64,000 nt of DNA from Candidatus Enterousia sp. (GTDB lineage Bacteria > Pseudomonadota > Alphaproteobacteria > Rs-D84): positions 2,696-66,695 of the forward strand of contig JAZLAZ010000007.1 of the NCBI GenBank assembly GCA_045613445.1. Direction: 5' to 3'. The position numbers were made by a program, and so were the translations under genes. Of the stretch, positions 28,506 through 46,414 are shown in pieces. A model generated the notes under the pieces. That model did no database searches. It was not told where the DNA came from and saw only the letters and a list, made by a program, of their open reading frames with translations. The first letter of the stretch is position 1; every line of letters begins with the position of its first letter.

Positions 28506-29336
28506 ATGCAACAAACTTTTACACTGCATACACATACAACACCTTTTGATGGAAAAAATACTGCAGAACAAATGATTGATGCCGCACAACAACACGGCAT
28601 GGAAACAATCGGTATATCAAATCACTTTATTGTGCACCCAGATATTATAAAAACAAAATTCTATCCTTTTGCTGTATCTGGAGGATACAATTATATGTAC
28701 AACACAAATTTCAATAATACAATTTGCAAATTTCAAGAACACTATAATCATCTGGAACAGATTGCCGTAAATTATAACATAAATGTATTACATGGTATGG
28801 AACTGGATTTGTTTGATAACAGACGATGGTATAACGGTTATGCACATATGATAAAAACACTAAATCCAGACTATATTATCGGTGCTGCACATTTTATCGA
28901 ATATGGTGGAAAATTATGTAATATACACGATATGAAAAACGCAGCACCAGATGACCAAGATAAAATGCTGCGTGCATATTGGAAAAAAATTCAATGGATA
29001 GCAAAATCTGGAATGTGTAATTTCTTGGCACATATTGATTTGCCTGCACGACAAAAACTGGGACTGGATGAGAAGTGGACGGATATCGAACAAGAAACAA
29101 TTGATATAATCGCAGAAGCCAAAATACCTGTGGAAATAAATACCGCACTGTATAAATATTCAGATCGTCCACACCCATCACCACGAATTATGAAAATGTG
29201 CGCAGACAAAAAAATACCAATGTTTTTATCGGATGACGCGCATCATATCAGTCATGTGTGCAAATACTTTGAAGATGCAAAAAAATATGCCGATAATTTT
29301 GGCATAAATTTAATCGGACTAGATAAAATTCTTTAA
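28506..29336 (+). CDS. PHP-domain phosphoesterase (HisJ-family histidinol-phosphatase-like)
   Basis: LHTHTTPFDG, GISNH and downstream His/Asp motifs (AAHF, LAHIDL, SDDAHH). Confidence 0.6.
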   Translation: MQQTFTLHTHTTPFDGKNTAEQMIDAAQQHGMETIGISNHFIVHPDIIKTKFYPFAVSGGYNYMYNTNFNNTICKFQEHYNHLEQIAVNYNINVLHGMELDLFDNRRWYNGYAHMIKTLNPDYIIGAAHFIEYGGKLCNIHDMKNAAPDDQDKMLRAYWKKIQWIAKSGMCNFLAHIDLPARQKLGLDEKWTDIEQETIDIIAEAKIPVEINTALYKYSDRPHPSPRIMKMCADKKIPMFLSDDAHHISHVCKYFEDAKKYADNFGINLIGLDKIL

Positions 29337-30244
29337 TCATTTGCACGCGGATGTGCGTTGGCATATATATTTGTGATTTCTGCCATATTTACCTTGGTAT
29401 ATAACTGGGTCGTGGACAAGGACGAATGACCCAACAATTCTTGCAAGCTACGCAAATCTGCGCCCCCTGCCAACAATGCCGTGGCAAATGTGTGACGCAA
29501 TGCATGTGGTGTTACATAATCTGGTAATTGTAAATAATAGCGTAAATTTTCAACAACCTTTTGCGCCATCCGTGGCGACATCGGCAAGCCGCGCACACTG
29601 CGAAATAATTCGTCTGTGGCACTATTACCAAATGGGCGAACAGCAATATACTTTTCAATCGCATCCCATACAACAGGTAATACAGGAACAAGCCTTTCTT
29701 TGTTTCCTTTTCCTGTTATACGCAAAACATCTGGACGACCACGAATATCCATATTCCGCAACGATAACGCTTCGGATATACGCAGTCCACAACCAAATAA
29801 CAATACAACCAACGCCCAATCACGTGCAGCCAACCATGGTTCACCCACATCAATATCACGAATTGCACCATGCATGTGTTCAACATCAATCGGTTCAATT
29901 GCCTTGGACAGTTTGCGTGGAACTTTTGGTGAAGATATTAAACCAATTGCATCGTTTTTAATTCCATGATATCGCGCCAAGTATTTATAAAAACTGCGCA
30001 ACGAAGATAACGCACGCGCCGTCGATTTATGCGACAAACCACGCCGTTGACGATTTGCCAAATACGAACGAAAACACAATGTATCAACACGCGATAAATC
30101 ATGTGGTAATGGTGGTGTGCTGGAAAAATCTTGATAGAACAGCAAAAAATCACGAATATCTGTGTCGTATGCCGTTGCAGTGTGTGACGAATAATTCTTC
30201 GTCTGGGTTAAATAATCAATAAATTCAACAACGATTTCGTTCAA
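29333..30244 (-). CDS. XerC/XerD-family tyrosine recombinase
   Basis: N-terminal SAM-like domain (FIDYLTQTKNYSSHTATAYDTDIRDF). GLRISE, HALRHTFAT, LGHSSLSTTQLYT. Confidence 0.88.
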   Translation of the reverse strand: MNEIVVEFIDYLTQTKNYSSHTATAYDTDIRDFLLFYQDFSSTPPLPHDLSRVDTLCFRSYLANRQRRGLSHKSTARALSSLRSFYKYLARYHGIKNDAIGLISSPKVPRKLSKAIEPIDVEHMHGAIRDIDVGEPWLAARDWALVVLLFGCGLRISEALSLRNMDIRGRPDVLRITGKGNKERLVPVLPVVWDAIEKYIAVRPFGNSATDELFRSVRGLPMSPRMAQKVVENLRYYLQLPDYVTPHALRHTFATALLAGGADLRSLQELLGHSSLSTTQLYTKVNMAEITNIYANAHPRAND

Positions 30245-32183: not shown

Positions 32184-32210
32184 AAAAATCCCCCAAGTGG
32201 GGGATTTTTA
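32184..32210. terminator. bidirectional terminator AAAAATCCCCC-aagt-GGGGGATTTTT
   Basis: Perfect 7-bp GC-rich stem flanked by an A-run and a T-run. Closes the minus-strand phage-type cluster. Confidence 0.75.
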
Positions 32211-32468
32211 TTTTATTACTGCACCTTTTATCAGGGTCAGGTCTTCTTTGATATCATCAATCTTGATTTGGATTCTGGCGATACCTGTTTCCAAAATTGT
32301 TGTTCTGTTTTCCAGCGCAGTTATACGATTATCAACACGTTCCAATTCCAACACAGAAAAATCTTGCTTGGCAGCCCAGTAAATTACACCTGCGATAAAT
32401 ACGATTATAAACCAACTGTCACGCAAAAATTCAATTAAACCATTTACAGGATGTTGTTGCGATTTCAT
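32208..32468 (-). CDS. phage-cluster small membrane/coiled-coil protein (86 aa)
   Basis: One TM (WFIIVFIAGVIYWAA) plus a coiled coil. Last gene of the cluster. Confidence 0.5.
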   Translation of the reverse strand: MKSQQHPVNGLIEFLRDSWFIIVFIAGVIYWAAKQDFSVLELERVDNRITALENRTTILETGIARIQIKIDDIKEDLTLIKGAVIK

Positions 32469-32668
32469 GATTTATCCCCCCGCCCACGCGATACAAATGT
32501 TTCAATCTGATGCACCAACATGCGTTGCGATTCCAATGAACGCAATTCTGATTCTGTGGCATTTGCCCCCAGCACGCGTTCAATCGTTATATGACGCAAG
32601 TGCGTCAGCACACGCTGCCCAGATGCACCAGAAAATGTTTTGGCATATGCCTGTTCTATATCTGTCAT
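32465..32668 (-). CDS. phage-cluster small protein (67 aa), portal-adjacent
   Basis: Translationally coupled to the portal gene and the next ORF (4-nt overlaps). Faint resemblance to small portal-adjacent proteins of BPP-1-like phages, recalled from memory only. Confidence 0.45.
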   Translation of the reverse strand: MTDIEQAYAKTFSGASGQRVLTHLRHITIERVLGANATESELRSLESQRMLVHQIETFVSRGRGDKS

Positions 32669-33900
32669 AAAGCCCCCCCAATAATACTTTCTGTTGCGGT
32701 CATTTGTGCGATTGGTGCAATGTATTTTAATTCTGCATCGCTGTTTAATTTTATTTCTGGGATCAGACCGCGCGATGACAGAATCTGTAATCCCCTGTCA
32801 CATAACGGTCTGATAAATTCATGTAACAGACGACCATATGTCGCGCCCAAAATACGCATCATATCGGCATTGCGCGCCATAATTTCTGTTGCTGTCATTT
32901 CTTTTTCACTCAACAACCCCAGTCTGTCTACCAATAATGTGTGCCGTATGCGTTCACGCAAATCTTTTAATATAATTTGTGACACATCAAAATTCGCAGC
33001 ACTGGTCAACGGTGTAAGTCCTGATGATCCAACTGCCTTTGGTATAATTGCCCCTGGTGTTAAATTGATATTATTTAAGTTTACAACACCATCGTCATCT
33101 GCTTGCCAGATACCTGATACGGCAATTGTTGCGTTTTTTAATACCAGTTCTACGACTTTGTTCGCTGTTTTTATATCTGGCAATGCACGCATAATGGGAC
33201 CGCGACCATATAGTTCGCCACTGGCAACAGACCAACGAAATACGATATATGGATTTGTTTCAAATGTACCCGTTGATACAATATTATTTTCAATATCGCC
33301 ACCAACATCTAACCATGCTGTAAATTCTGTTCCAACCAAACTTTGCACCAATTTTAATTGTATTTCTGGGTCGTTCTTGATTGAATCACGCAAATTTGCA
33401 GGCGGTGTCCATGTTGGATATTTTTCCATCACTTCATTTGCACTCATCGATGTTGTGTGAAATATCGCGTTTGGTAAAATCGCAATATCTGATACTGGTA
33501 TCGCAGTAAAGTTAAATGCAGATGATGCACCAATTGGATTTTGCCCCATAAACAAACACGCTGTTCCCAAGGTTACTAAATCCATATAGCACTGGTGTAT
33601 CGTCGTGTAAAAATTAGAATCATTTAAGTGGGCACGCAACACAGATGTCGCATAATCAGCATCCGGTGATAATTCACTTTCGCGAACCAGTTGCAACCAC
33701 ATCGATTCTGGAGGTGTCAACAAAGTGTAAATGGATGCAGCCAAGTTATCTGCTGCATCTGATGCTGTTGCATCGTATAATGTTGCTAGATCCACATCAG
33801 ATGTTGGCATTGTATATCTGTGTGCGTCTTCCCAGCGCGAAATCCATGGTTCACGTAAACCAATGGCGCGTTTATAAAGTTGCACTAAATTATTTTGCAT
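32665..33900 (-). CDS. podovirus-type portal (head-to-tail connector) protein
   Basis: N-terminus LYKRAIGLREPWISRWEDAHRYTMP is typical of podovirus head-tail connector family proteins. Lies directly downstream of the terminase. Confidence 0.6.
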   Translation of the reverse strand: MQNNLVQLYKRAIGLREPWISRWEDAHRYTMPTSDVDLATLYDATASDAADNLAASIYTLLTPPESMWLQLVRESELSPDADYATSVLRAHLNDSNFYTTIHQCYMDLVTLGTACLFMGQNPIGASSAFNFTAIPVSDIAILPNAIFHTTSMSANEVMEKYPTWTPPANLRDSIKNDPEIQLKLVQSLVGTEFTAWLDVGGDIENNIVSTGTFETNPYIVFRWSVASGELYGRGPIMRALPDIKTANKVVELVLKNATIAVSGIWQADDDGVVNLNNINLTPGAIIPKAVGSSGLTPLTSAANFDVSQIILKDLRERIRHTLLVDRLGLLSEKEMTATEIMARNADMMRILGATYGRLLHEFIRPLCDRGLQILSSRGLIPEIKLNSDAELKYIAPIAQMTATESIIGGAL

Positions 33901-33923
33901 TTTTATTCCTTTTTGTTGTGTTG

Positions 33924-34787
33924 TTATATCTTGAAATTTGTATTTGCTGAAAATGTTTTAATTGTATGCCCCAATGGTCGCACGATATTTGGCTGTTGTG
34001 CAATTGCACCTGCGACTGCGTCCAGACCATCATCGTGCCCAATATATCCAACTGGTGACCAACCAATCATCTCTGACATCAATGGTGTTTTTTGAATACG
34101 AGCATGTGCATACAGTCGTCCAGTACTTAAAACAGGTTCAATTGCAGCCAAAATTCTGTCTGACTTTGATTTTGTATGTGATACACGATTTACATATACA
34201 CTGAATCCACAACGCATTGCACAATCATGCATAATTTCTGGAACGCCAATTCCAATACCGTTTGTTTCAATTGTTATTCTGGACAATCCGCGCACCCGCA
34301 TAAAGTCAATTACCATATCACACTGACGCGATAACGGAAATTGTTCTGAATCAAGTACTGCCAGATATAAAATATCGTGAATAAACACATGCTTGTTTTT
34401 ATCATCGCGGTATATCAGCACACAGGCACTGCCGTCACGTTTACTGCGACCTGTGGACGGATCCCAATACAAAACACAGCCAGAAATCAGATGTTTACCT
34501 ATTTTGGCTGACCGAGAATCAAATTCTTCGTCATAAAATAGCAAACCACCAGGATCTAACCTTGCGCGTTCTGGCGAAATAAATTCCAACATCATTTGGG
34601 CAGAAAAATGTCGTTCCCCCACTGTTTCTTGCATTTGGGCAATTTTTTTAACCGGAAAAAGTTCTGGCCACGCAGGATTTCCAGCACTGTCCACAATTGG
34701 AATCTTTAATATTTTATACCCAGACAAAAAAGGCGTTGAAAAAGCATTTTTTTCATATACCATTGAACCAAAGAAGGAATTTGACAT
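33924..34787 (-). CDS. terminase large subunit, C-terminal (nuclease) half of a split gene
   Basis: AWPELFP..FSAQMMLEF, YWDPSTGRSKRDGSACVLIY and GHDDGLDAVAGAI are RNase-H-like nuclease motifs. The first usable ATG at 34787 shares the palindrome CATG with the dnaB start. Confidence 0.7.
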   Translation of the reverse strand: MSNSFFGSMVYEKNAFSTPFLSGYKILKIPIVDSAGNPAWPELFPVKKIAQMQETVGERHFSAQMMLEFISPERARLDPGGLLFYDEEFDSRSAKIGKHLISGCVLYWDPSTGRSKRDGSACVLIYRDDKNKHVFIHDILYLAVLDSEQFPLSRQCDMVIDFMRVRGLSRITIETNGIGIGVPEIMHDCAMRCGFSVYVNRVSHTKSKSDRILAAIEPVLSTGRLYAHARIQKTPLMSEMIGWSPVGYIGHDDGLDAVAGAIAQQPNIVRPLGHTIKTFSANTNFKI

Positions 34788-36351
34788 GGACTTTACCCCT
34801 AAGACTTTACCAACCAATTTAGAAGCCGAACAGGCCGTATTGGCGGCGGTTTTAATGAACAATCGTGCGTTGGAACGCGTGTCTGAATTCCTGCGAGCAG
34901 AACACTTTTCGCATCCAGCACACCAAGAAATTTTCAAACTGGCAACCCGTCAATTCGAAGTTGGCATCCCATTTGATATTATCACCGCAAAAAACTATCT
35001 GGATCAGCAAGGTGTTCTGGAATCCGTCGGTGGCGTTGACTATCTGACACAATTATCTGGCGCAGGTGCAACTGTTGTAAATGTTGAACAATACGCAAAA
35101 ATAGTTTACGAACACGCAATGCGTCGTGATTTAATCGCATTGGGCCAAGATATTACTGACAAAGCTTTTATCGAAGATCTGGATAACCCTGTTATTCGAC
35201 AAATAGAAATCGCAGAACAAAAATTATTCGATATGGCCACAACAGGTTCGTCTGAACGCGAAGTATCATCTATTGAAACAGCACTAAATGCGGCATTAAA
35301 AGAAGCAGAAATCGCGTACAAAGCCGAAAATCAATTGTCTGGTCTAACCACTGGCTTGGATGCATTAGATAAATCAATCAGTGGTTTACACCATTCAGAT
35401 TTAATCATTATTGCTGGTCGACCTGCGATGGGAAAAACAACACTGGCAATGAACATGGCGTTTAATGCAGCACACGCAATTGCATACGGACGCGCAAACC
35501 CAAATTACAAGGGCGCAGTTGTATTTTTCAGTCTTGAAATGTCTGCGTCACAGTTGGCTGCGCGTGTATTATCATCGCAATCAAAAGTTCCTGCATCAGC
35601 CATGCGCGAAGGGAATTTGACAGACGAAGACTTTTTGAAACTGACACAATATGCATCCGCTATAAATAAAATACCATTGTTTATTGATGACACACCAGGT
35701 ATGTCGGTACCAATGATTCGCACCCGCGCACGCAGACTGGCACGTCAACATGGTGGCATTGCACTGATTGTTATCGACTATCTGCAATTGATGACATCCC
35801 CAGGTGGCAAAAAAAATGACAACCGTGTTCAAGAAATTTCCGAAATCACCCGCGGTTTGAAAATGCTGGCCAAAGATTTAGATGTACCTGTTATCGCATT
35901 GTCACAGTTGTCGCGTAGCGTTGAACAACGCGATGATAAACGACCACAGTTGGCAGACTTGCGCGAATCAGGATCTATTGAACAAGACGCCGGTATTGTT
36001 ATGTTCACATATCGTGAAGAATACTATCTGCAAAATCGCGATCCATCTGAAAGACTGTCAAATACAACCAATAACACAATGGTAGAAAGCTGGCAAAAGC
36101 GTCTTGATCGCGCCCGCGGCAAAGCCGATATTATCATCGGAAAAAACCGTCATGGACGCCCAGAAACAGTACGCACTGCGTTCTATGGCGATTACAGTTT
36201 ATTCGATAATTTGGACGAATTCCAATCACGCGGAGAAAATGAATTTGCACAGCCTGCACAGACAGTAACAGCATCTGCATTTGGCCCTGATCCAAATTCA
36301 ATGCCAACCGCAATCGATCCAGACGCAATCCCAGACGATATTCCATTGTAA
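34786..36351 (+). CDS. dnaB: replicative DNA helicase DnaB (with ~60-aa acidic/Pro-rich C-terminal tail)
   Basis: N-terminal LPTNLEAEQAVLAAVL, Walker A GRPAMGKTTLAMNMA, IDYLQLM, ALSQLSR, NRHG. Confidence 0.93.
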   Translation: MDFTPKTLPTNLEAEQAVLAAVLMNNRALERVSEFLRAEHFSHPAHQEIFKLATRQFEVGIPFDIITAKNYLDQQGVLESVGGVDYLTQLSGAGATVVNVEQYAKIVYEHAMRRDLIALGQDITDKAFIEDLDNPVIRQIEIAEQKLFDMATTGSSEREVSSIETALNAALKEAEIAYKAENQLSGLTTGLDALDKSISGLHHSDLIIIAGRPAMGKTTLAMNMAFNAAHAIAYGRANPNYKGAVVFFSLEMSASQLAARVLSSQSKVPASAMREGNLTDEDFLKLTQYASAINKIPLFIDDTPGMSVPMIRTRARRLARQHGGIALIVIDYLQLMTSPGGKKNDNRVQEISEITRGLKMLAKDLDVPVIALSQLSRSVEQRDDKRPQLADLRESGSIEQDAGIVMFTYREEYYLQNRDPSERLSNTTNNTMVESWQKRLDRARGKADIIIGKNRHGRPETVRTAFYGDYSLFDNLDEFQSRGENEFAQPAQTVTASAFGPDPNSMPTAIDPDAIPDDIPL

Positions 36352-36430
36352 TTTTTGTATGATTTTACTTGCACAATTTCTAAAAATTGACTAATATTTT
36401 GTCAAGAAATATTTTTTTAGGAGTTTTGCC

Positions 36431-37438
36431 ATGGCACAAGAAGAAATCATCTTTCCAAATAATATACGCAACATTCGTTTGGCGGCTGGCATGAAAATGA
36501 CTGAATTGGCGCGTCGTACCGGTCTGTCGTTGTCCGCTGTTTCCAAAATTGAAAAGGGTGTGCGACGCCTGAATCAAAAACAATTGTTGAACATATGTAA
36601 TATCTTGGGCTGTAAATTATCCGATATATTCATCAAAGAATCTGACGATGTCGCAAACCAATGGCAAAGCGAAATAAAACGCCGCATGACAGATAATGAA
36701 GACAGCGGTTTGAAAGTATTTGGCAGCGGATTGCGTAAAATCCGCCAACAAAAAGGTAAAACAATCGCACAGGCAGCAAAAGACGCTGGCATGACACTGT
36801 CTGTATATCATAAAATCGAAGTCGGTCAACGCGAAATTTATAAAAATGAAATCGAACCATTGGCAAAATCTTTTGCAATGGGTGTCGAAGATATGTTCCA
36901 ACAGATCGCCAACCTGTATAAATCTGGCGAATTGAACAAACATATCAACAAGGTCAAAGAACGCGTTAAATCTGTTTTAATTCCAGGCAACCCAATGTCT
37001 GGTATCGATATGCATGGCAGCGTTTATGGTGCAAAACTGTATGACAGCGCACGCAAAAAATTAGTACCAGTCTTTGGAACGCCCGCAGGCAAATCAATTG
37101 TTTTCAAAAAATCAGACGAAACGATGATTGTTGCGCCAATGACACTGGAAGGACGCAAAGGTATCTATGCCATCATACCAAACACAAAAAGGTTGGGTGG
37201 TTTTATCCCTGAAAAATCTTATCTGTTCGTTGATGCATTGACACCTGCGCAACCAGGTGACTTGGCGGTATGTATCGACACCGACTTTAATACATTGGAC
37301 AGTGACACAAAAACAACTGCACATATTGTCAGTGTGCGTCAAGATGCCAAAGGAAAATTATATGGACATATCGCATCACCAGAAGAAAAAGTTACCGGCC
37401 AAACAATGCATAAAGTTATCATGATTGTAATGGAATAA
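36431..37438 (+). CDS. dual XRE-HTH regulator with degenerate LexA/CI (S24-like) C-terminal domain
   Basis: Two HTH units (IRNIRLAAGMKMTELARRTGLS.. and LRKIRQQKGKTIAQAAKDAGMT..). The C-terminus resembles the S24 fold but has GGFIPEK where the catalytic GDSMxP would be. Confidence 0.6.
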   Translation: MAQEEIIFPNNIRNIRLAAGMKMTELARRTGLSLSAVSKIEKGVRRLNQKQLLNICNILGCKLSDIFIKESDDVANQWQSEIKRRMTDNEDSGLKVFGSGLRKIRQQKGKTIAQAAKDAGMTLSVYHKIEVGQREIYKNEIEPLAKSFAMGVEDMFQQIANLYKSGELNKHINKVKERVKSVLIPGNPMSGIDMHGSVYGAKLYDSARKKLVPVFGTPAGKSIVFKKSDETMIVAPMTLEGRKGIYAIIPNTKRLGGFIPEKSYLFVDALTPAQPGDLAVCIDTDFNTLDSDTKTTAHIVSVRQDAKGKLYGHIASPEEKVTGQTMHKVIMIVME

Positions 37439-37466
37439 GTCCATAACCAACAGGAGAGAGACAACC

Positions 37467-38108
37467 ATGAAAGTACAAATTCGTGCAACTGCACAAAAAT
37501 TGGTAAACCTGTACCGTCAGGCGCATGTTATAGTTGGTGGCTGGTCGGCTGTAAACCCAATATTCATCAACGAGGCTGACGATGCTGTCATCCAAGAAAT
37601 ACGCGAATTACCAACAGGAAAAATGTTGGTTCGTCATATCGAAAATTTACGCAGTGGCAAAACATCGATGGATTCAATCGAACGTGAATTGTTGCCATAT
37701 GGCGGCATGATGGCAGGCAACACAATTGCGACAATCAATTTGACAAGTGACCAATGGACAGAACTGGAAAATGGAATTAAAAACTTTATTCCAACCCAAG
37801 AAGGTCTTGATGCATTCACAGAACTGGATGTTGTTCATAAATTCGGTGAAGAATGGCAAACAGCTATCAGTTCATTGATACAAACCAAACCACATCTGCG
37901 TAATGGATGGACAAACATAAATCAGACATTTAATGCATACAGATTATGGAATACTGCACGCGAAGTCATTTCAAATCCACTGACAGAACGCGTCCGCGCC
38001 CAGGTTCAATCTGATATGCCTGAATTTGAGACATATTTACCAATGTTTGGCGATGCAGGAACAGAATTATTGGCCAAACTGCGTACTTTTATCAGTACAA
38101 TCGACTAA
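37467..38108 (+). CDS. hypothetical protein (213 aa), third gene of the dnaB cassette
   Basis: ORF with RBS AGGAGAG. No homology recognised. Confidence 0.55.
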   Translation: MKVQIRATAQKLVNLYRQAHVIVGGWSAVNPIFINEADDAVIQEIRELPTGKMLVRHIENLRSGKTSMDSIERELLPYGGMMAGNTIATINLTSDQWTELENGIKNFIPTQEGLDAFTELDVVHKFGEEWQTAISSLIQTKPHLRNGWTNINQTFNAYRLWNTAREVISNPLTERVRAQVQSDMPEFETYLPMFGDAGTELLAKLRTFISTID

Positions 38109-38112
38109 ACAT

Positions 38113-38721
38113 TCACTGCGTTCGATATATCGTATCGTATGTATGCGGTGTGCCAATGTAAATCATTGTACCTGTTGGTGATAAAATAAAATCCAATTCA
38201 CGCAATCGTTCTCGTAAATTTTCGCGCTTTTGTGCTGTGTTGGATGTATTTGGCACTTCGACATCGTCACAAATTATTAAATCTGCACGCATACCTGTTA
38301 TGTTCCCATAAACACCCTGACATATCACAGATGGTTCACGAATGCCAATCGGTCTGTTTATTGTGATACGACCTGTTGCCCATTCTTTTTTATTTGCAGG
38401 AATCATATCTGTACAAAATGTATGATTTTCTAAAACATGCTTGATATGAGATACCATACGGGTTGCCAATGTATTTTCGGCAGATAAAATCAATATTCGT
38501 GTTTCTGGGTACAAATATAAAATACATGCTGCAAATACACCAACAACTGTTGATTTACCTGAATGACGAAACGCCATCAATAATCCCCTATGCGGATTTT
38601 CAGTCCAACAATCTACCAAAAAACGCATAATCTGGCGATGGTGCGCAGGTGTTGACAGTCCCAATATTCTGTTCCATTCGTCCAGAAATTTATAAAACTC
38701 CGTAATCATCGTTGTTTTCAT
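38113..38721 (-). CDS. terminase large subunit, N-terminal (ATPase) half of a split gene
   Basis: Walker A AFRHSGKST, Walker B DLIICDDVE, coupling motif IYIGTPH. The stop lies 4 nt from the end of the plus-strand cassette. Confidence 0.7.
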   Translation of the reverse strand: MKTTMITEFYKFLDEWNRILGLSTPAHHRQIMRFLVDCWTENPHRGLLMAFRHSGKSTVVGVFAACILYLYPETRILILSAENTLATRMVSHIKHVLENHTFCTDMIPANKKEWATGRITINRPIGIREPSVICQGVYGNITGMRADLIICDDVEVPNTSNTAQKRENLRERLRELDFILSPTGTMIYIGTPHTYDTIYRTQ

Positions 38722-39253
38722 TCGGTGCAGGTTCTGTAATCAGACCATAATCGTTTATCAATTTTGGTAATGCATTTTCCAACACAGACAACAAATTTTG
38801 ATACAGTCCCAGCACCGCCCCACCAGACAGTTTATCTGCAATTACTTGATTTGTATAATCCATCAAACGCTTTATATTGTCATGTTTGTTCTGCCATTCC
38901 AAAGTATCAACATTTATGCTGTGTAAATCTTGAAAAGCAGACAGTAAAAAATTAAAATCAGAATTCAAATCTTCTGGGTCTATTTTTTTGGTCGGCTGAT
39001 AATCAATTGTACGTGATAACGATATCTGACGAAATATATCTATCTTGGTATCTATAGCAGGTGCAACATCAAACACAATGTTTCCACCAGAAAAATCTTC
39101 GTTTGGCATGACAGCAAAATTATGATTTTCACCATCAATAACTTCATCAATTGCGACACGAACATCTGCAGTTTGAAAGAAAGGAAAAGAAAATGCAAAT
39201 TCTGTTGTCGCACCATCTGCAATATAAGAGATTTTATACATGTTATCCCCCAT
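38690..39253 (-). CDS. T7 gp17-N-like tail fibre/fibre-anchor protein (187 aa)
   Basis: MYKISYIADGATTEFAFSFPFFQTADVRVAID parallels the T7 tail-fibre N-terminal domain (..TYQLDGSNRDFNIPFEYLARKFVVVTL..). Confidence 0.55.
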   Translation of the reverse strand: MGDNMYKISYIADGATTEFAFSFPFFQTADVRVAIDEVIDGENHNFAVMPNEDFSGGNIVFDVAPAIDTKIDIFRQISLSRTIDYQPTKKIDPEDLNSDFNFLLSAFQDLHSINVDTLEWQNKHDNIKRLMDYTNQVIADKLSGGAVLGLYQNLLSVLENALPKLINDYGLITEPAPNENNDDYGVL

Positions 39254-39256
39254 TTT

Positions 39257-39604
39257 TTACCCAGCAATATCATCAAATCTTGATAATATTTTTTCCAGCA
39301 AGTTTACATTTTTAGCCTTGGTCTTTTTTAATTTAGCAATGTTTGATTGTCTTTTTTCTTCGTATGGGGCAGAAACTTCTGATTTCAATCGTTTTAATAC
39401 TGCACCTTCGGTTATGCCATTACCAGACATACCAGATGCGCCATATTTTGCACGTTGGGTGGCCAATGCCTTATTTACCAGATTTGTTTTTTCCGCTTCG
39501 TCAGCAGCCATTTTTTTCAGAATTTCTTTGCGTTCTGATTTAGCTGCTTTTTTAGCATCTTGATATTCCAAGATTTCTGTCACATCACTTACAATTTGTC
39601 CCAT
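39257..39604 (-). CDS. phage-cluster Lys/Ala-rich coiled protein (115 aa), possible internal virion protein
   Basis: Position between the tail-like gene and the fibre gene. Composition only. Confidence 0.4.
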   Translation of the reverse strand: MGQIVSDVTEILEYQDAKKAAKSERKEILKKMAADEAEKTNLVNKALATQRAKYGASGMSGNGITEGAVLKRLKSEVSAPYEEKRQSNIAKLKKTKAKNVNLLEKILSRFDDIAG

Positions 39605-39627
39605 TGTTTATATCCTTTGTTATTTTG

Positions 39628-41340
39628 TTATACTTTATACCAACCGTGTACACTGACCGATAAAACCGTTATTGGCATTGGTTCTGAACTGTGTATCGTC
39701 CACATCGGTTCAATCGCATTTTTTATTGTTCCTAATAAATTTATTGAAACATCACCGTTGTATCCGGACGACGAAATATCGTATACAGAATTTGGCAATG
39801 TTATACGATGCTTGTTTATTGATATTGATTTTGTATCAATCACACGTGCAACTATTTTTCGAACTTTGATGCGTGTCGCATTATGATTTGACGAACGCAA
39901 CGGTAACCCAGATGCAGTAAATGAAAAATTATATTGCCCCGCATCAATCAATGCTGTTGAATCAAAATATTCTAAAAATACAGCATCATCGCGTTTAACA
40001 ACAGCATATGTTTTGCCATCACATGACGCAACAGACATGAAACCGCCACGCGTTTTATATGTTCCCCATGCGGATACACCCAATGACGCATTTTGATTTA
40101 ATACAGCCATCGTGCCATTATCACACACAACAAACAACTGACGCGTGTTACTGTTATACACAATATCCAATGGTATGGTCATTAAATGTTTTGATAACGC
40201 ACATAAATCATTTGCATTATAATGTTCACCAATATCATCCAGACTTAGTTCACGAATATCACGACCATTACCTGATATAAAAACCGTCGCGCCTTCTATT
40301 TTTTGTGGCGCCAAAAAACGACGCATGTACGATCCAACCGATGTATGCTGTTTTATATCAACCGCAGATGGCGTCAGCGGTTTATTTGATATCGCCCATT
40401 CACCAGAATTAGTCAATATTTGTAAATTATCACTGCTGACAACAGTGCAAATTTCTTGTCGTTCTTGTGATAATAACGAAACAAATATCGCTTCGTCATC
40501 AAGACCTGTACCTGCACTGAAATTTTTATGATTTCCAACCTTGGACATCCATATACCACTGGGCCAAGAACGCGACCCTCCAAAAACTAATCTGTCTTGA
40601 TGAAAAGTGATACTGCGTGGCCATCCACGACGATTACTGAATGCCGCTTCGTACCATTCAGACACAGGGCCATTTGGTATGGTATATACAGCATTGATAT
40701 ATGCAACGATTTGCGTTGGGCTGATATATTCTGTAATTTCCCATTGATTTTCCAGCAAATGTAAACGCGTGCCAACACTGTCCGGTGTCCAAAAGTTTTT
40801 ATTCGTGGTAAATGTAGCATAATTATTCCCAGATGAATGCGTACTGATTGTTATCCGAATATCGTCAGAATCATCAAACCGCATAAACGGCATGTTCAAT
40901 GTCATATTACTGTTGCCTTCAAATTGAAATGCAGACAGACGAAATGCTGAACCCTGCTTTTGCAACACATATGGTTGATAATCAGGGTGAACAAATATCA
41001 TCGTACCAAAACGCTGGGCATACTGCACAGCAAACAAGTCATCATAAGACCATGGAGATGCTAAATCTTGGTGCAACTGGTTGTTATAATATACAGATAT
41101 ATGATGATCTGTCAGCACTAATATATAATCTTCGTTATCTGCGACAGAAAAACAGATTATTCTGGCATCACCAGACAACTGATTGACTGTTGTTAGTCCA
41201 TATCTGCGCGATATTGCACCACTGGCCAAAACATCCATATTTTCCAGTTTTGACAAACCGTTTATATTATCATGCGCAAAAAATTCCGGGGCAACTTCAC
41301 CATTTGCAAATGAATTTTGTGTTTTTATAAAACTTGCCAT
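39628..41340 (-). CDS. phage tail/nozzle-like structural protein (570 aa)
   Basis: N-terminus QNSFANGEVAPEFFAHDNINGLSKLENMDVLASGAISRRYG resembles podovirus tail tubular/structural proteins. Position after the adaptor-like gene. Confidence 0.5.
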   Translation of the reverse strand: MASFIKTQNSFANGEVAPEFFAHDNINGLSKLENMDVLASGAISRRYGLTTVNQLSGDARIICFSVADNEDYILVLTDHHISVYYNNQLHQDLASPWSYDDLFAVQYAQRFGTMIFVHPDYQPYVLQKQGSAFRLSAFQFEGNSNMTLNMPFMRFDDSDDIRITISTHSSGNNYATFTTNKNFWTPDSVGTRLHLLENQWEITEYISPTQIVAYINAVYTIPNGPVSEWYEAAFSNRRGWPRSITFHQDRLVFGGSRSWPSGIWMSKVGNHKNFSAGTGLDDEAIFVSLLSQERQEICTVVSSDNLQILTNSGEWAISNKPLTPSAVDIKQHTSVGSYMRRFLAPQKIEGATVFISGNGRDIRELSLDDIGEHYNANDLCALSKHLMTIPLDIVYNSNTRQLFVVCDNGTMAVLNQNASLGVSAWGTYKTRGGFMSVASCDGKTYAVVKRDDAVFLEYFDSTALIDAGQYNFSFTASGLPLRSSNHNATRIKVRKIVARVIDTKSISINKHRITLPNSVYDISSSGYNGDVSINLLGTIKNAIEPMWTIHSSEPMPITVLSVSVHGWYKV

Positions 41341-41353
41341 TTTTTTACCCCTA

Positions 41354-41872
41354 TTAAAATCTGGAACTGATTAAAAAAAAGTCTGATATAGTGTCACTAA
41401 TTGATGTTGTACTGTCGATGAATTTCGCGTTTTGCAGTTCTGATTCATACAATGCAACCAACATACGAAAAACTGTTTGATCGCCCAACAATGGTATACA
41501 AAATTCCATTGCTAAACGCGTAGCAACCAATGATGCAAAATATCCAGGAAATTTTTCTGGTGCTGTTTTAGTTATCGCAATTATATGTGTCGTATCAGCA
41601 TCAGATAAAATCTTATTGCCCATAATTTGACCGTCTGATTTTAGGACACGCAAAACATCTGATGGAATTACAAAATTATTATCTGTGTTTTTTACTAAAT
41701 CTATACTTTGTATCGCAAAACGCCATGGATATAATGACAATAATGAATCAGTAACTGTATCAAACAGTGTTCTGGATAATTGCACCGCAGCACTGTCATC
41801 TGTCAATGATTGTATTGGTGTTTCACCCAGTTTTAATAATGCCATAGAACATAAGTCTATCTTAGTAAGCAT
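41354..41872 (-). CDS. head-tail adaptor / tail tubular A-like protein
   Basis: Start at MLTKIDLCSMALLKLGE (RBS AGGAG). The I..AL..LG....SL.D.S pattern is typical of podovirus adaptor proteins. Confidence 0.45.
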   Translation of the reverse strand: MLTKIDLCSMALLKLGETPIQSLTDDSAAVQLSRTLFDTVTDSLLSLYPWRFAIQSIDLVKNTDNNFVIPSDVLRVLKSDGQIMGNKILSDADTTHIIAITKTAPEKFPGYFASLVATRLAMEFCIPLLGDQTVFRMLVALYESELQNAKFIDSTTSISDTISDFFLISSRF

Positions 41873-41964
41873 GTTTGGGTTCTCCTTTTTTTTGATGTTT
41901 ATTAGCAAAATATCAGGCCGGTAAAAATACCGGCCCAAACATATAAAAGATATATAAAAATATA

Positions 41965-42192
41965 TTATGCCAATGCAACTGTGGTTACATTTAAGTCTGT
42001 AATATTTATTTTCTTTATCGCTGTGTTATCAGATGCATTGATAATAATATCACCAATATTCATCAATGTTTTTACGCTGTTAAAATAACCATTTGCTGTG
42101 ATTGTTGATAATGTCTCAGCTGCACTGTAATGCCACAATGTAAATCCATTTGCGTATGCAATAACTGACAAGTTTTTATTTTGAAATGCCAT
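41965..42192 (-). CDS. phage-cluster small protein (75 aa) downstream of capsid
   Basis: ORF in operon position. No function assigned. Confidence 0.45.
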   Translation of the reverse strand: MAFQNKNLSVIAYANGFTLWHYSAAETLSTITANGYFNSVKTLMNIGDIIINASDNTAIKKINITDLNVTTVALA

Positions 42193-42236
42193 GTTTTTTC
42201 CTTTTGTTAAATCTTTTGATTTCTATTGTGTTTTAT

Positions 42237-43064
42237 TTATGCAGATGGTGCATCAGAACATTTAACGCGAACAATACCTGCATTATCAATCAATACTGCA
42301 CCTTGGGACATGCTATTGCTGATAAAGTGTGCAGCACGTTCACCATGCCAAGAAATATCTGTTTTAACTTCTTGACCACAAGCATGACCGACACTGGACG
42401 CATGATAAATAAAGCAATCACGATTTGTACCATCAACAGGCAAACCGTTGTACAGAACCCATGTAATTCCCAACCATTTGCGTGCTTCAAACCCGTTCAC
42501 CAACGGAGATGCATTGCCAACATAATCAGCAGATATAAATTCATCCATCGACAACAGTTCATTCCACTGGTGTACACCAACAACTGCAAAACGACGACCA
42601 TCGTCTGGAACATCGTTTGTATTCAAGACTTCAACAGCCGACAAGATTAAATCTTTGGTCAATCCAGATGTATAATCACCCACACCTGTGGTTACAGTAT
42701 TCATTGCACTGACAATCAATTCATCTGTCTTGCGACCCAATGCGTATGCACCAGCCGATGCCACAACGCGACGTTCATCAACATTGATTTTCAATTCATC
42801 CAATGCATCAACCCAATCACCTGCATAATAATCTTGCAGCATACATTCAATTGGTTCATGATTCAAATTCATCACAGGAACAATACCGTGACGCGATTTT
42901 GTGCTGGCAGTACCACGACCAACCTTTTGAAAGGTTGTTGATGCACCAACAACACCAGATTTACTGCGAACAGTTGAACGCAGTTTTGTGCCCATTTGCT
43001 GATAAGCCAAATGAACATCCGCTTCGAATTGTTTTACGAATACATTATCTATTGAAATAGACAT
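42237..43064 (-). CDS. major capsid protein (small, presumed HK97-fold)
   Basis: N-terminus VFVKQFEADVHLAYQQMGTKLRSTVR..TFQKVG is typical of podovirus major capsid proteins. Position after the scaffold-like gene. Confidence 0.6.
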   Translation of the reverse strand: MSISIDNVFVKQFEADVHLAYQQMGTKLRSTVRSKSGVVGASTTFQKVGRGTASTKSRHGIVPVMNLNHEPIECMLQDYYAGDWVDALDELKINVDERRVVASAGAYALGRKTDELIVSAMNTVTTGVGDYTSGLTKDLILSAVEVLNTNDVPDDGRRFAVVGVHQWNELLSMDEFISADYVGNASPLVNGFEARKWLGITWVLYNGLPVDGTNRDCFIYHASSVGHACGQEVKTDISWHGERAAHFISNSMSQGAVLIDNAGIVRVKCSDAPSA

Positions 43065-43310
43065 ACAAAAATCCTTTTGTTAAAAATTAAACATTTATGC
43101 AAATAACGCATATCAGATTTTGTGTTTTGGTTATGCAAATAATGCGCCATAAAAACAAAAAATTATTTGGGTCCGTAATGAATACAGATTATCCATAAAA
43201 AATATCAGTCAGACTGTGCACAATAATCTGACTGATACTTTTATAAAAACAGGGTCTGTGAATCACAGACCCTTGACATATAAAAACCCCACCATTATTG
43301 GGGAATTATA

Positions 43311-43709
43311 TTATTTTTTCTTTGCACATGCTTTTTTTGCAACTGGTTTTGCTGCTGCTTTCTTTGCAACTGGTTTCGCAGCTACTTTTTTTGCAACTGG
43401 TTTTTTCGCAGCTACTTTTTTTGCAACTGGTTTTGCTGCTGCTTTTTTTGCAACTGGTTTTTTCGCAGCTACTTTTTTTGCAACTGGTTTCGCAGCTACT
43501 TTTTTTGCAACTGGTTTTGCTGCTGCTTTCTTTGCAACTGGTTTTGCAGCTACTTTTTTTGCAACTGGTTTTGCTGCTGCTTTTTTTGCAACTGGTTTTG
43601 CTGCTGCTTTTTTTGCAACTGGTTTCGCAGCTGCTTTTTTTGCAACTGGTTTTGCTGCTGCTTTTTTTGCAACTGGTTTTGCTGCTGCTTTTTTCTTAAA
43701 CAAGAACAT
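43311..43709 (-). CDS. Lys/Ala/Pro 9-aa-repeat basic protein (histone H1 / AlgP-like)
   Basis: RBS AGGAGA. The protein is almost entirely (A)AAKPVAKK repeats. Minus frame chosen for its RBS, the cluster strand and the terminators downstream. Confidence 0.65.
   Translation of the reverse strand: MFLFKKKAAAKPVAKKAAAKPVAKKAAAKPVAKKAAAKPVAKKAAAKPVAKKVAAKPVAKKAAAKPVAKKVAAKPVAKKVAAKKPVAKKAAAKPVAKKVAAKKPVAKKVAAKPVAKKAAAKPVAKKACAKKK
43322..43696 (-). repeat. 27-nt (occasionally 30-nt) in-frame tandem repeat, about 13 units
   Basis: GCAACTGGTTTTGCTGCTGCTTTTTTT units alternating with TTCGCAGCTACT variants. Confidence 0.9.
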
Positions 43710-43813
43710 TCTTCTCTCCTATATTTTTTGAAGATAGAACAAATTTTTTTGTTCTTACTTTATATTTTATATGAAATATATTTTTTAGTAAAGAAGAAAG
43801 TGATATTTTTTTT

Positions 43814-44470
43814 CTACGAATATAATTTTTTAAATCCATTTTCTATTTTTCGGATGTATTCAACATCATTATCACGCCAATATTTTGGATCACGCATCAT
43901 GCGACGCAAATCAGAATCTGTTAAATTTTGCGTTTCATTTTTATCTGTTTTTACATCTGGTTCCATTGATTGCATCATCTTATAGACACTTTGTATTCCC
44001 TGGGGTGTAGAACATAACGCATCAAATGCATCACGTGGTAAAAACCGTTCACCAAATGCATTTATTGCATGCATTGCTTCATTCATTTTTTCTGTCCCAC
44101 CAAAAAAATTTTTTAATTCATTTATTGCAACACTTTCATTTTGTACAGAAAATAATTCTGATATTATTGGTGATAAATATTCATTTGCAATATTATAAAT
44201 TTTTTCAACTTGAGAAGTTGTCAATCCAATCTGAAAAAATTGTTCTCGCAAACTTTCATCATCATATAAATCATTTTTTGGATATTCAGATGCACTTTCT
44301 GGGACACCTATTGCACGATTAAATTTTCGTTTAGATTCTGCATCAGAATTTTCATTCGGTACTGATATCATTGTACCAATCTTTTTTTCCAGTTCTGTAT
44401 AAGATTTTATCAATGATTCCGAATTTAATGTTCCATCTTGGTTCAAAAATTTTTCTGGTATTTTATCCAT
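43814..44470 (-). CDS. scaffolding/capsid-assembly-like protein
   Basis: Start MDKIPEKFLNQDGTLNSESLIKSYTELEKKIG (RBS AAGGA). Helical, acidic, upstream of the capsid gene. Confidence 0.45.
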   Translation of the reverse strand: MDKIPEKFLNQDGTLNSESLIKSYTELEKKIGTMISVPNENSDAESKRKFNRAIGVPESASEYPKNDLYDDESLREQFFQIGLTTSQVEKIYNIANEYLSPIISELFSVQNESVAINELKNFFGGTEKMNEAMHAINAFGERFLPRDAFDALCSTPQGIQSVYKMMQSMEPDVKTDKNETQNLTDSDLRRMMRDPKYWRDNDVEYIRKIENGFKKLYS

Positions 44471-44666
44471 TACTTTTTCCTTTTGTTTCATTTGCTTTGC
44501 GCAAGAAATAAATTCCACCCAATGTAAAAATAGCTTGTAACATTGTAAAAATATCTGTATCACCAACCAAGTATGCAGCCAATGCTGACAGTATACCCGT
44601 TGCAGAAATTATATATGTACGATATCCAGACAGATAACCACCTTTGACTATTCTTTTCATATGCAA
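44463..44666 (-). CDS. holin-like small membrane protein (two TM)
   Basis: 67 aa, two hydrophobic segments, basic C-terminus. Immediately after the endolysin gene. Confidence 0.45.
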   Translation of the reverse strand: MHMKRIVKGGYLSGYRTYIISATGILSALAAYLVGDTDIFTMLQAIFTLGGIYFLRKANETKGKSNG

Positions 44667-44669
44667 TAC

Positions 44670-45068
44670 CTATAAATAAAATAATATTCCATCTATATCA
44701 TCAATATACCCACGTGCAATTGCCCATTGTGGTATAAAACTGGCATGATGAAATTTGGTTGCACCGTGACAACAATCAGACAATCCACCAGACAACATAC
44801 GCGACGCCACACGAACACACATTTCAAATTTACGGTTATTTATATTTTCGTCTGCAATTAAAATTTTATTTACGTCACTAAAAATCGTTTTATCTGATAT
44901 GATTTCCGATATTGCAACACCTGTTTTATTTGATAGATTTTGTATCATTGATGTCAACGCTTCGACAAGCAGCAACGATGTGGCACCTGTTTGTTCATAC
45001 ACAACACGTGCGACACGATATGCCAATGTTGCATGCATATCTGTGTTCTTTATCAATTTTAATTGCAT
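44670..45068 (-). CDS. SleB/Hydrolase_2-like cell-wall hydrolase (endolysin)
   Basis: C-terminal GATKFHHASFIPQWA motif and overall pattern of SleB-type phage/GTA lysins. Start set to MQLKLIK (ATG 45068, RBS AAAGGA) because the upstream codons are terminator hairpins. Confidence 0.55.
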   Translation of the reverse strand: MQLKLIKNTDMHATLAYRVARVVYEQTGATSLLLVEALTSMIQNLSNKTGVAISEIISDKTIFSDVNKILIADENINNRKFEMCVRVASRMLSGGLSDCCHGATKFHHASFIPQWAIARGYIDDIDGILFYL

Positions 45069-45085
45069 GACGAATATCCTTTGGT

Positions 45086-45114
45086 AAAAAAAATCCCATG
45101 CAAAATGCATGGGA
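45086..45114 (-). terminator. leader terminator 2 (proximal to endolysin gene)
   Basis: Minus strand: UCCCAUGCA-uuu-UGCAUGGGA followed by U8. Confidence 0.6.
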
Positions 45115-45117
45115 AAT

Positions 45118-45140
45118 AAAAAAACCACACAATTGTGTGG
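45118..45140 (-). terminator. leader terminator 1 / 16-bp perfect palindrome
   Basis: CCACACAATTGTGTGG followed on the minus strand by U7. Could alternatively be an operator. Confidence 0.5.
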
Positions 45141-45231: not shown

Positions 45232-45912
45232 TTACACAATTATTTCATCACCATACACCAATAAATATCGTGTTCCACGACGCAAAACCAGCGCACCATT
45301 TTCATTTATACCAATCAATTCTGCCAGTTCACCTTGATACTTGACAGGTTTGTTTATGCACGCAGCCAATTCTGTCCATCTGGCGCGCACAGCGCGAAAA
45401 TCAGCACGACGCCACTTATCAATATTGCGCATCAATCTGTTTAGTAATTCATTCATTGGTATTTCAGAATAATTATCTAATTTGGTCGTCTGATATCGTT
45501 CAACAGTTGGATTTGAATTTACATTGATACCAATACCAACAACAACGAATCGGCCTGTATATTCAATCAAAATACCCGCCATTTTTTTATTATCCACCAA
45601 TATATCATTTGGCCATTTTATTGTTGGATGTACGCCAAATGACGCAATTGTTTCAGATACCGCCACTGCAATTGCATATGACAGACGCGCATCACGTTCA
45701 GGACATTCAAATATAAAACTGATATACAAATTTCCATGATGAGAAACCCATGTTCTGCGATATCGTCCACGCCCAGCAGATTGTGCCGCCGCCAAGACCG
45801 CCGTTTTATCAGTTGCACGCCCAGCATTGATTAGTTCATGCGCATAATCTTGGGTACTTGGGATTTTATCAAAAGATATCAATTTATAGTTTGCCAATAC
45901 TGTATACTCCAT
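45232..45912 (-). CDS. birA: biotin--[acetyl-CoA-carboxylase] ligase
   Basis: GRGRYRRTWVSHHGNLYISF signature, KWPNDILV. Start set to MEYTVLANYK. Confidence 0.85.
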   Translation of the reverse strand: MEYTVLANYKLISFDKIPSTQDYAHELINAGRATDKTAVLAAAQSAGRGRYRRTWVSHHGNLYISFIFECPERDARLSYAIAVAVSETIASFGVHPTIKWPNDILVDNKKMAGILIEYTGRFVVVGIGINVNSNPTVERYQTTKLDNYSEIPMNELLNRLMRNIDKWRRADFRAVRARWTELAACINKPVKYQGELAELIGINENGALVLRRGTRYLLVYGDEIIV

Positions 45913-46414
45913 TGTTATTTTGTATAAATTCCCGCCCATACATGCGACGCAATTGATAAATAGCCGTATCAACTGTATGCGTCGATGCATCGGGAGCATA
46001 TCCCAATGCACTTCTAAGTTGCATCGCTGTCATACCACCTGTTTGATACAAGCACGTCAGAATCTTGGCCTGAATTCGTGGTAAAACCACACTTTTTCCA
46101 AAAATCTTTGTCAAAACAGCACTGTTATCCGATATGCCCAATAATAAAGATTTTAATTCTGTTGGTGATAAAACATCTGAAATTTTTATATCATCAAAAT
46201 TGATATCTGTCACAGACGGTGCATCCAAGACACACGCACCCAAATCCCCCAGTATTTGTCGCCATACAATATCTGATGTATAAATACGAATACCTGATAG
46301 CATAGTAATATCGTAGCGAATAGACATAAAATTGTCCAATAAAAAAACCATATCTGTATTAAACCGATATGGTTTTTTGGGTATTAGTTTCCCATTGCAC
46401 AAACTTTTACCCAC
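45884..46414 (-). CDS. hypothetical protein with C-terminal OmpR-type winged-helix-like region
   Basis: LTCLYQTGGMTAMQLRSALGYAPDASTHTVDTAIYQLRRMYG..GVYSIG resembles a Trans_reg_C domain. Confidence 0.45.
   Translation of the reverse strand: MGKSLCNGKLIPKKPYRFNTDMVFLLDNFMSIRYDITMLSGIRIYTSDIVWRQILGDLGACVLDAPSVTDINFDDIKISDVLSPTELKSLLLGISDNSAVLTKIFGKSVVLPRIQAKILTCLYQTGGMTAMQLRSALGYAPDASTHTVDTAIYQLRRMYGREFIQNNNGVYSIGKL

Follow-up and report, generated by a model that had tools for sequence, protein, structure and literature searches.

In the alphaproteobacterial gene transfer agents (GTAs) RcGTA and BaGTA, a phage-derived cluster of head, tail, portal and terminase genes occupies a fixed chromosomal site and is inherited vertically under purifying selection, without the replication and integration genes of the parent phage. 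The known GTAs of Alphaproteobacteria are not T7-like; RcGTA is siphovirus-like, and its large terminase (TerL) is related to the P22-like headful terminases (PMC7947584). Here we describe a gene cluster of ~13 kb (32208..45128) in a 64,000-nt stretch of Candidatus Enterousia sp. (assembly GCA_045613445.1, contig JAZLAZ010000007.1, positions 2,696-66,695), hereafter the window. The cluster resembles RcGTA and BaGTA in its phage-derived gene set, its fixed site and its vertical inheritance under purifying selection, but it is T7/podovirus-like and has a two-gene terminase with a host replication operon between the two genes. FpGTA of Faecalibacterium prausnitzii was described in January 2026 as the first podovirus-like GTA-like element (PMC12946183). 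It shares with our cluster a gut-bacterial host and a podovirus-like, GTA-like character; compared by its description only, FpGTA stands apart in belonging to Firmicutes, in occupying two loci and in having experimental packaging evidence, with no split terminase reported (PMC12946183).

The terminases of T7 (gp19) and PhiV-1 (4bij, 8dgc; NF033889) belong to the same family as the present one by sequence and fold, but they are single chains of 586 aa, whereas here 202 and 287 aa are encoded separately, with the break inside the ATPase domain past motif III. Split terL genes in jumbo gut phages are restored by group I introns or inteins, and their inserts encode homing endonucleases (PMC12880540). 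The likeness to these and to the split terL of crAss-like phages is that terL appears as two or more open reading frames (ORFs) in the genome; in contrast, the Enterousia locus has no intron, intein or endonuclease, and what is inserted looks like an essential host operon and lies on the other strand. Gene division is also known from the skin element in sigK and from the nifD element, which carry a recombinase and att repeats and leave the distal gene half without a start of its own. As in those cases, a multi-kilobase segment divides a gene, and reconstitution would fit a terminally differentiating (lysing) cell; unlike them, the Enterousia block has no recombinase and no boundary repeats, and the distal terminase gene has its own start. 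Beside known GTA-like clusters, the two-gene terminase and the nested replication operon are unusual, and our literature search found no account of phage or GTA genes in Enterousia or its order, Rs-D84.

We consider it likely that 32208..45128 is a T7-like cluster that has been domesticated and passed on vertically, that its terminase consists of two chains encoded around the cell's dnaB operon, and that its product is most likely a GTA-like DNA-packaging particle. The cluster would supply lysis, scaffold, capsid, tail-tube, terminase and portal functions; the two terminase chains (TerL-N and TerL-C) would each be translated from their own start codon and associate non-covalently, restoring one ATPase fold, and the gap between their genes would house the cell's replicative helicase operon on the other strand. 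We infer that the two chains form an active terminase and that particles are made and carry DNA.

The two terminase genes and their break point

The two terminase genes and the block between them comprise the following features:

38113..38721, minus strand: TerL-N, 202 aa, first part of the ATPase domain with Walker A, Walker B and motif III
33924..34787, minus strand, ATG at 34787: TerL-C, 287 aa, rest of the ATPase domain (residues ~1-80) and RNase-H-like nuclease domain
34786..36351, plus strand: DnaB, replicative helicase of alphaproteobacterial type, 521 aa, NF006606, Pfam DnaB and DnaB_C
36431..37438, plus strand: regulator with two helix-turn-helix (HTH) domains, 335 aa, two Pfam HTH_3 domains and a C-terminal domain
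37467..38108, plus strand: 213-aa all-alpha protein with no family match, last gene of the dnaB operon

TerL-N carries the motifs RHSGKST, LIICDDVE and IGTPH, and TerL-C carries YWDPS and HDDGLDA. On the PHROG profile phrog_38, TerL-N covers positions 271-459 and TerL-C positions 468-705. On the NCBIfam model NF033889 (termin_lrg_T7, length 500), TerL-N covers positions 2-190 with 227 bits against a cut-off of 150, and TerL-C covers positions 333-500 with 87.6 bits, which alone is under the whole-protein cut-off. The concatenated halves match intact T7-like phage terminases as one tblastn piece (query 9-471; 27-29% identity), and alignment to the gp19 proteins of T7 and PhiV-1 (4bij, 8dgc) crosses the junction gap-free. 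TerL-N and TerL-C are evidently adjacent, non-overlapping parts of one T7-type large terminase. The original prediction, made from the letters of the window, had read them in this way, and phrog_38, NF033889, the single tblastn piece and the gp19 alignment agree with it; the coordinates of both halves, the CATG at 34785-34788 where TerL-C meets dnaB and the 4-nt spacing at the convergent stops (38108/38113) are as it had given them. T7-type large terminases are defined as single polypeptides; here, two ORFs lie 3.3 kb apart, with a conserved stop and restart in ~125 loci.

The break lies 11 residues past IGTPH and aligns to YLGTPQTEMTLYKEL of T7 gp19, at about residue 215 of 586. We take this region to be motif III of the ASCE ATPase, well ahead of the ATPase-nuclease linker, which places the break, by alignment, inside the ATPase domain directly after motif III. 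The first ~80 residues of TerL-C are conserved (PFLxGYxxLKIPI, WPE, QMML). In an AlphaFold2 model of TerL-C alone, residues 1-76 have a predicted local distance difference test score (pLDDT) of <50 and residues 80-265 one of ~90. Foldseek matched this model to the PhiV-1 terminase (8dgc_E, E=1e-10) and also to the terminase nuclease domains of P22, RB49, SPP1, G20c and Sf6; TerL-C alone holds a complete nuclease domain. As the break is inside the ATPase domain and the N-terminus of TerL-C models poorly alone, the two chains would need to complete one ATPase fold in trans, presumably rebuilding it by non-covalent association.

Alternatively, an intact terL might be rebuilt on demand by skin-like excision of the block, by intron splicing or by intein trans-splicing. 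Restoration of split terL by group I introns or inteins is known in gut jumbo phages (PMC12880540), and a XerC-type recombinase gene lies ~2 kb off the cluster end (29333..30244). However, no direct or inverted repeats were found at the block edges 34786 and 38112 (search 33800-38900), and no recombinase lies within the block by Pfam and NCBIfam profiles, as the original prediction had noted. Rfam gave only tRNAs in the window, and no credible match or intron in the spacer between the halves of a sister lineage (L003, below); Pfam detected no intein or homing-endonuclease domain. Moreover, TerL-N has a conserved stop, TerL-C has a conserved ATG and its own Shine-Dalgarno (SD) sequence, and the block holds three strongly conserved genes on the other strand. 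These features largely refute rebuilding, which we regard as very improbable, and the excision model was dropped.

One relative (locus L002, 8228-9436) encodes a 402-aa "long" TerL-C, P0001, which was considered as an intact terL and ruled out as an internal duplication. It carries a tandem duplication of ~120 nuclease-domain residues, which may be an assembly artefact or real.

Conservation of the arrangement in Rs-D84

The data comprise the 64-kb window and 10-kb flanks of its relatives. We compiled 125 loci, namely 80 species-representative genomes, 43 IMG/VR contigs, L001 and L002. The 80 came from a DnaB scan with the window's DnaB as query and one genome per species, and all are metagenome-assembled genomes of Candidatus Enterousia or other gut Alphaproteobacteria from ruminants, chickens and humans. 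The 43 IMG/VR contigs (L088-L130) extend the range to loci whose DnaB is only 60-75% identical, and all 125 loci share the arrangement. With the concatenated TerL as query, >100 stand-alone TerL C-halves of 279-288 aa were returned at 60-99% identity, on contigs of up to 275 kb. Organisms of the order Rs-D84 are uncultured, with genomes of 0.75-1.0 Mb that lack the TCA (tricarboxylic acid) cycle and respiratory chains (PMC12306168).

Every sufficiently long locus among the 80 representatives and 43 contigs has the same gene order from birA through the downstream host genes. After birA come the hydrolase, 67-aa, scaffold, capsid, 75-aa, tube A, tube B and 115-aa genes, (the fibre N-domain gene) and TerL-N; the opposite-strand 213-aa, HTH and dnaB genes follow, and then TerL-C, portal, the Bbp19-like gene and the 86-aa gene. 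No second dnaB or terL is present in the 64-kb window.

The ratio of nonsynonymous to synonymous substitution rates (dN/dS) was estimated for the window against seven close relatives; dS is near 1, which makes the ratios approximate, with a clear direction:

TerL-N: 0.03-0.065
TerL-C: 0.09-0.16
Capsid: 0.05-0.075
Portal: 0.05-0.07
DnaB: 0.03-0.05
HTH protein: 0.02-0.05, conserved as strongly as DnaB
BirA: 0.04-0.11
75-aa protein: 0.02-0.06
213-aa protein: 0.10-0.22

Cluster genes overall fall at 0.02-0.2. In TerL-N, FRHSGKST, DLIICDDvEVPNT and IGTPH are invariant in 122 loci, and in TerL-C, YWDPS, ETNG and HDDGLDA are invariant in 123. Purifying selection on the two terminase halves is strong. 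As in GTAs, a structural cluster holds a fixed chromosomal position and is inherited vertically across species, with purifying selection on its structural and packaging genes.

From one genome alone, the default reading would be a defective prophage, its terL destroyed by insertion and now decaying, and this was one of the options of the original prediction. Two relatives do show deletions. L022 has lost the structural genes but retains the cassette, codons 1-77 of TerL-C and codons 85-201 of TerL-N; several truncations are found in L016. Against decay stand the presence of the arrangement in ~125 loci, dN/dS of 0.03-0.16 for both halves, the invariant motifs, and host genomes of <1 Mb. As these genomes measure 0.75-1.0 Mb, retention of ~10 kb of non-functional phage genes across >100 species is unlikely. 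All structural genes of the window cluster are intact, as had been predicted. The comparative data refute the decaying prophage, to which we give hardly any credence, for this genome and nearly all relatives; decay is confined to L016 and L022. By the same comparison, the arrangement is old, fixed in Rs-D84 and under selection. The earlier suggestion that TerL is made as two chains gains support from the ~125 loci, the invariant motifs, the low dN/dS and the conserved ATG and SD of TerL-C.

The split also occurs without dnaB. Thirteen stand-alone C-halves at 33-72% identity all start within a few residues of the same FLxGY motif. A sister lineage, represented by two independent assemblies (L003 and L175), encodes a capsid 76%, a TerL-N 62% and a TerL-C 43% identical to those of the window. 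Its TerL-N stops at the same residue (…IGTPHAKDTIYDVG*), followed by 480-490 bp of non-coding DNA and then TerL-C. The cluster opens alike, with hydrolase, 67-aa protein and scaffold; it is flanked by genes for BipA, a DEAD-box helicase, OmpH, LpxD and FabZ, and no dnaB lies within 10 kb. As this lineage is broken at the same residue although its gap lacks dnaB, a terminase in two genes does not require the dnaB block. dnaB may have entered a pre-existing gap, or may have been lost from the gap in L175.

Locus L169 has an unrelated gene ahead of TerL-C and host genes after it. An intact, contiguous TerL is found no nearer than in viral-database relatives at 31-39% identity, whose T7-like clusters have the order portal, scaffold, capsid, tube, fibre, TerL, hydrolase. 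A rough neighbour-joining tree of the C-halves places most split forms together and is poorly resolved; a single origin is not claimed. The original prediction had allowed that related autonomous phages might normally encode the halves as separate genes. Relatives do have two genes, but all four of those loci whose flanking genes are readable are chromosomal clusters and not autonomous phages. When metagenomes were scanned with TerL-C of the sister lineage (P0124), the one locus obtained was irrelevant. Pelagibacter phage Hodr was considered as a relative and set aside, as it shares capsid, portal and tube genes but has a TerL from another family.

Further observations concern the split site. 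The spacer of the sister lineage (L175 10586-11065, equivalent to L003 7365-7856) contains a promoter-like site (TTGACA-17-TATATT) together with an intrinsic terminator and an RNA of ~180 nt, whose folding is better than that of shuffled sequences (z = -3.7) and whose long CU-rich loops could pair with ribosome-binding sites; it matches no Rfam family. Four independent contigs with distant stand-alone TerL-C genes (L085, L086, L087 and L168) end 52-298 nt upstream of that gene, suggesting repeat or strain-variable sequence at the split site that interrupts assembly. The distant C-halves P0125, P0127 and P0128 likewise lie at contig ends, beyond which any N-half partner would be located.

The nested dnaB operon and its signals

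The DnaB in the block scores 609 bits against NF006606, the equivalog for alphaproteobacterial replicative helicases (cut-off 540), and therefore passes, but it fails the phage_DnaB model (403 bits, cut-off 499). Given genomes of only 0.75-1.0 Mb, a second copy is unlikely, and this dnaB is probably the only one in the genome; on the same ground, it is plausible that an essential gene lies within a phage gene. For the HTH protein, the sole full-length relative outside the clade is 38% identical and sits amid genes resembling those of conjugation and type IV secretion systems (T4SS). For the C-terminal domain of the window's HTH protein, sequence searches of Pfam and the PDB gave no match. The 213-aa protein has no family match in Pfam, PHROG or NCBIfam searches, and none of its 1158 homologues carries a name; its AlphaFold2 model is all-alpha (pLDDT 75), with no Foldseek match in PDB below E=0.3. 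Of the contents first proposed for the block, the housekeeping DnaB (NF006606), the two HTH_3 domains and the 213-aa protein without a family match stand, and the label "LexA-like" for the regulator is unconfirmed.

These data bear on the possibility that the block is a remnant of the phage's early (immunity and replication) module, whose DnaB replaced the host gene during genome reduction, so that all 13 kb would be phage-derived. The block lies on the opposite strand, like the early block of the related Pelagibacter podophage Hodr, and it includes a CI/Cro-type HTH protein; phages can carry DnaB (1555 phage records match), and the IMG/VR pipelines call the whole region viral. However, DnaB passes only the alphaproteobacterial housekeeping equivalog, its closest phage matches are just 43-49% identical, and the outside homologue of the HTH protein has a conjugation/T4SS-like and not a phage context. 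In addition, related T7-like clusters with an intact TerL lack such a block, and block GC content (0.41-0.43) is near that of the rest of the window. We regard a phage origin of the block as unlikely. The original prediction's related proposal, a phage replication/immunity module inserted into terL, finds no support as worded, given the housekeeping-type DnaB, the lack of flanking repeats and the sister-lineage break without dnaB. Across 32208..45128, no integrase, polymerase or primase was found, though DnaB and the HTH regulator, of host or phage origin, lie inside.

The signals of the operon are interlocked with the terminase genes. CATG at 34785-34788 holds the start codons of both dnaB and TerL-C, and 121 of 123 loci have an in-frame ATG of TerL-C that overlaps with the one of dnaB. 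At the other end, 4 nt separate the stop of the 213-aa ORF (38108) from that of the convergent TerL-N (38113), and in most species (75 loci) these two stops share 4 nt. The dnaB start is preceded by:

34726..34785, plus strand: promoter-like element and SD of dnaB, with TTGAAA at 34736, TACCAT ending at 34763 and SD GAAGGA at 34773-34778

This element and the SD are encoded within TerL-C codons 1-20. The 60 nt upstream of dnaB are near-invariant in 121 loci, with AAAAAAGGCGTTGAAAAAGC, TATACCAT and AGAAGGAA in order, and synonymous codon identity over TerL-C codons 1-29 is 0.98 versus ~0.5 elsewhere in the cluster. The TTGAAA-16-TACCAT pair was also picked up by a consensus promoter scan. Conversely, dnaB codons Thr4-Pro5, read on the opposite strand, give the TerL-C SD, AGGGGT, and the DnaB N-terminus MDFTPKTLP is almost invariant. 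The sigma-70 scan gave 54 sites against 56 expected from shuffles, i.e. no excess, and among them only the dnaB-proximal site is backed by conservation. A predicted antisense promoter at 35052-35081 was rejected, as its synonymous sites are not conserved. There are no antisense islands of equal conservation within the dnaB, HTH or 213-aa genes, and no terminator-like hairpin was found between the convergent TerL-N and 213-aa genes. A bidirectional terminator-like hairpin lies at 32181-32212, past the last cluster gene.

One possibility is that TerL-C and portal are transcribed by read-through from the capsid-to-TerL-N operon, antisense to dnaB. This leads to a more specific and rather doubtful proposal, in which an obligate two-chain terminase, its fold completed in trans, is combined with a nested dnaB operon that acts as an interlock. 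The capsid-to-TerL-N operon converges on the dnaB operon with no terminator between them. As no separate promoter was detected for TerL-C and portal, their expression may depend on transcription running antisense through dnaB, in which case a given cell could either make particles or supply helicase, but not both.

Other cluster genes and proposed function of the element

The remaining genes of the cluster, from birA onwards, are:

44670..45128, minus strand: cell-wall hydrolase, endolysin-like, 152 aa, first gene, just downstream of birA; weak matches to Pfam Hydrolase_2 and PHROG endolysin; syntenic
44463..44666, minus strand: 67-aa membrane protein with no family match, putatively holin-like by position and hydrophobic segments
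43814..44470, minus strand: scaffold (T7 capsid assembly), Pfam Phage_T7_Capsid, 34.3 bits against a cut-off of 27.1
43311..43709, minus strand: Lys/Ala/Pro-rich repeat protein, histone-H1-like, 132 aa; Pfam HC2, 36.9 bits, under the 40-bit cut-off
42237..43064, minus strand: major capsid protein, Pfam Phage_capsid_2, E=1.7e-70
41965..42192, minus strand: conserved 75-aa protein past the capsid gene, phrog_18004
41354..41938, minus strand: tail tubular protein A, phrog_394 tail protein (E=8.6e-31), weak Pfam Tube match
39628..41340, minus strand: tail tubular protein B (nozzle), phrog_376, E=2.5e-83
39257..39604, minus strand: 115-aa coiled-coil protein, position kept in all loci, family matches insignificant only
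38690..39253, minus strand: T7 tail-fibre N-terminal domain alone, 187 aa; weak matches to Pfam Phage_T7_tail and PHROG tail-fibre families
32665..33900, minus strand: portal (T7 head-to-tail connector), Pfam Head-tail_con, E=8.7e-82
32465..32668, minus strand: Bbp19-like small protein; L001 and L002 homologues carry Pfam Phage_Bbp19
32208..32468, minus strand: 86-aa protein with weak XhlA-like similarity, last cluster gene

The 67-aa protein is 60-94% identical across loci. The probable start of the scaffold is ATG 44470; its listed ORF reaches TTG at 44566, and the L001 homologue has 218 aa. Over its full length (43814..44470), the scaffold gene shows a synonymous codon conservation of 0.71 versus ~0.5 in other cluster genes, possibly from codon bias due to high expression or from an overlapping RNA feature. 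The repeat protein between scaffold and capsid consists of KKAAAKPVAKK units (Lys/Ala/Pro/Val-rich) encoded by tandem-repeat DNA at ~43216-43731, and a terminator-like hairpin (43251-43273) follows its gene. A comparable ORF of 63-175 aa lies between scaffold and capsid in 65 of 66 related loci; the HC2-like protein may be a DNA-condensing or internal particle protein. Between TerL-C and portal, six loci (L027, L072, L073, L083, L105 and L110) carry an extra 0.25-2 kb, marking a second insertion-tolerant site. Just upstream of birA (45884..46655, minus strand) are two putative regulators, an 82-aa Cro/C1-type HTH protein and a 176-aa winged-helix-like protein; the gene for the latter was found in 67 related loci, and the two could control the cluster.

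Several points weigh against a domesticated, particle-producing cluster with a two-chain terminase. The small terminase (TerS) and T7-type internal core (ejection) proteins were not identified in the cluster. The fibre protein is an N-terminal domain only, present in 73 loci and absent from 38 of 111; where its gene is absent, it is missing cleanly and the neighbouring genes keep their places. TerL-C changes two to three times as fast as TerL-N, the part of dnaB upstream of TerL-C showed no conserved promoter that could serve TerL-C and portal, and no portal lies within 10 kb in the sister lineage L175. Decay, seen in two loci only (L016 and L022), implies that the cluster is dispensable in some species.

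Some of these points would fit a different fate, in which the halves are no longer a packaging motor and have been co-opted, e.g. for a non-DNA-carrying particle or for separate ATPase and nuclease functions. TerS and the internal core proteins were not found, the fibre domain protein is often missing, no portal is near the L175 cluster, and TerL-C alone has a complete nuclease domain. On the other hand, the first ~80 residues of TerL-C, which are conserved, are part of the ATPase domain and give no fold when modelled on their own; there is no variation in Walker A, Walker B, motif III or the acidic residues of the nuclease; and portal, capsid and scaffold are co-conserved with the halves in Enterousia. 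We judge such co-option quite unlikely and favour a domesticated T7-like cluster that makes a GTA-like particle.

Related segments already stand in databases under other names. IMG/VR catalogues the chromosomal Enterousia-type segments L088-L130 as viral genomes of ~10-12 kb. In GenBank, a contig of 5 kb from human faeces, filed as 'Bacteriophage sp.' (MT838907.1, L173), carries a related portal, scaffold, capsid and tube set, with a capsid 63% identical to that of the window; two 'Bacteriophage sp.' contigs of the same study (MT835708.1, L171, and MT835812.1, L172) have an HTH or DnaB homologue only and no other cluster genes. Such chromosomal segments are labelled as viral both by virus-detection pipelines and in 'Bacteriophage sp.' records of GenBank.

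Should the two chains prove to form an active motor, a viral large terminase would be able to tolerate a break within its ATPase core and persist in that state across an order-level clade of >100 species-level lineages, which would bear on the folding and assembly of packaging motors. An obligate two-chain terminase, if true, would represent a novel design among viral DNA-packaging enzymes. The locus would be a T7-type GTA-like element in Alphaproteobacteria, among the smallest free-standing gut bacterial genomes, and would suggest that particle-borne DNA exchange is worth ~1% of a 0.9-Mb genome. With the promoter of an essential replication operon overlapping the terminase coding sequence, the host core and a domesticated virus gene would constrain each other's evolution.

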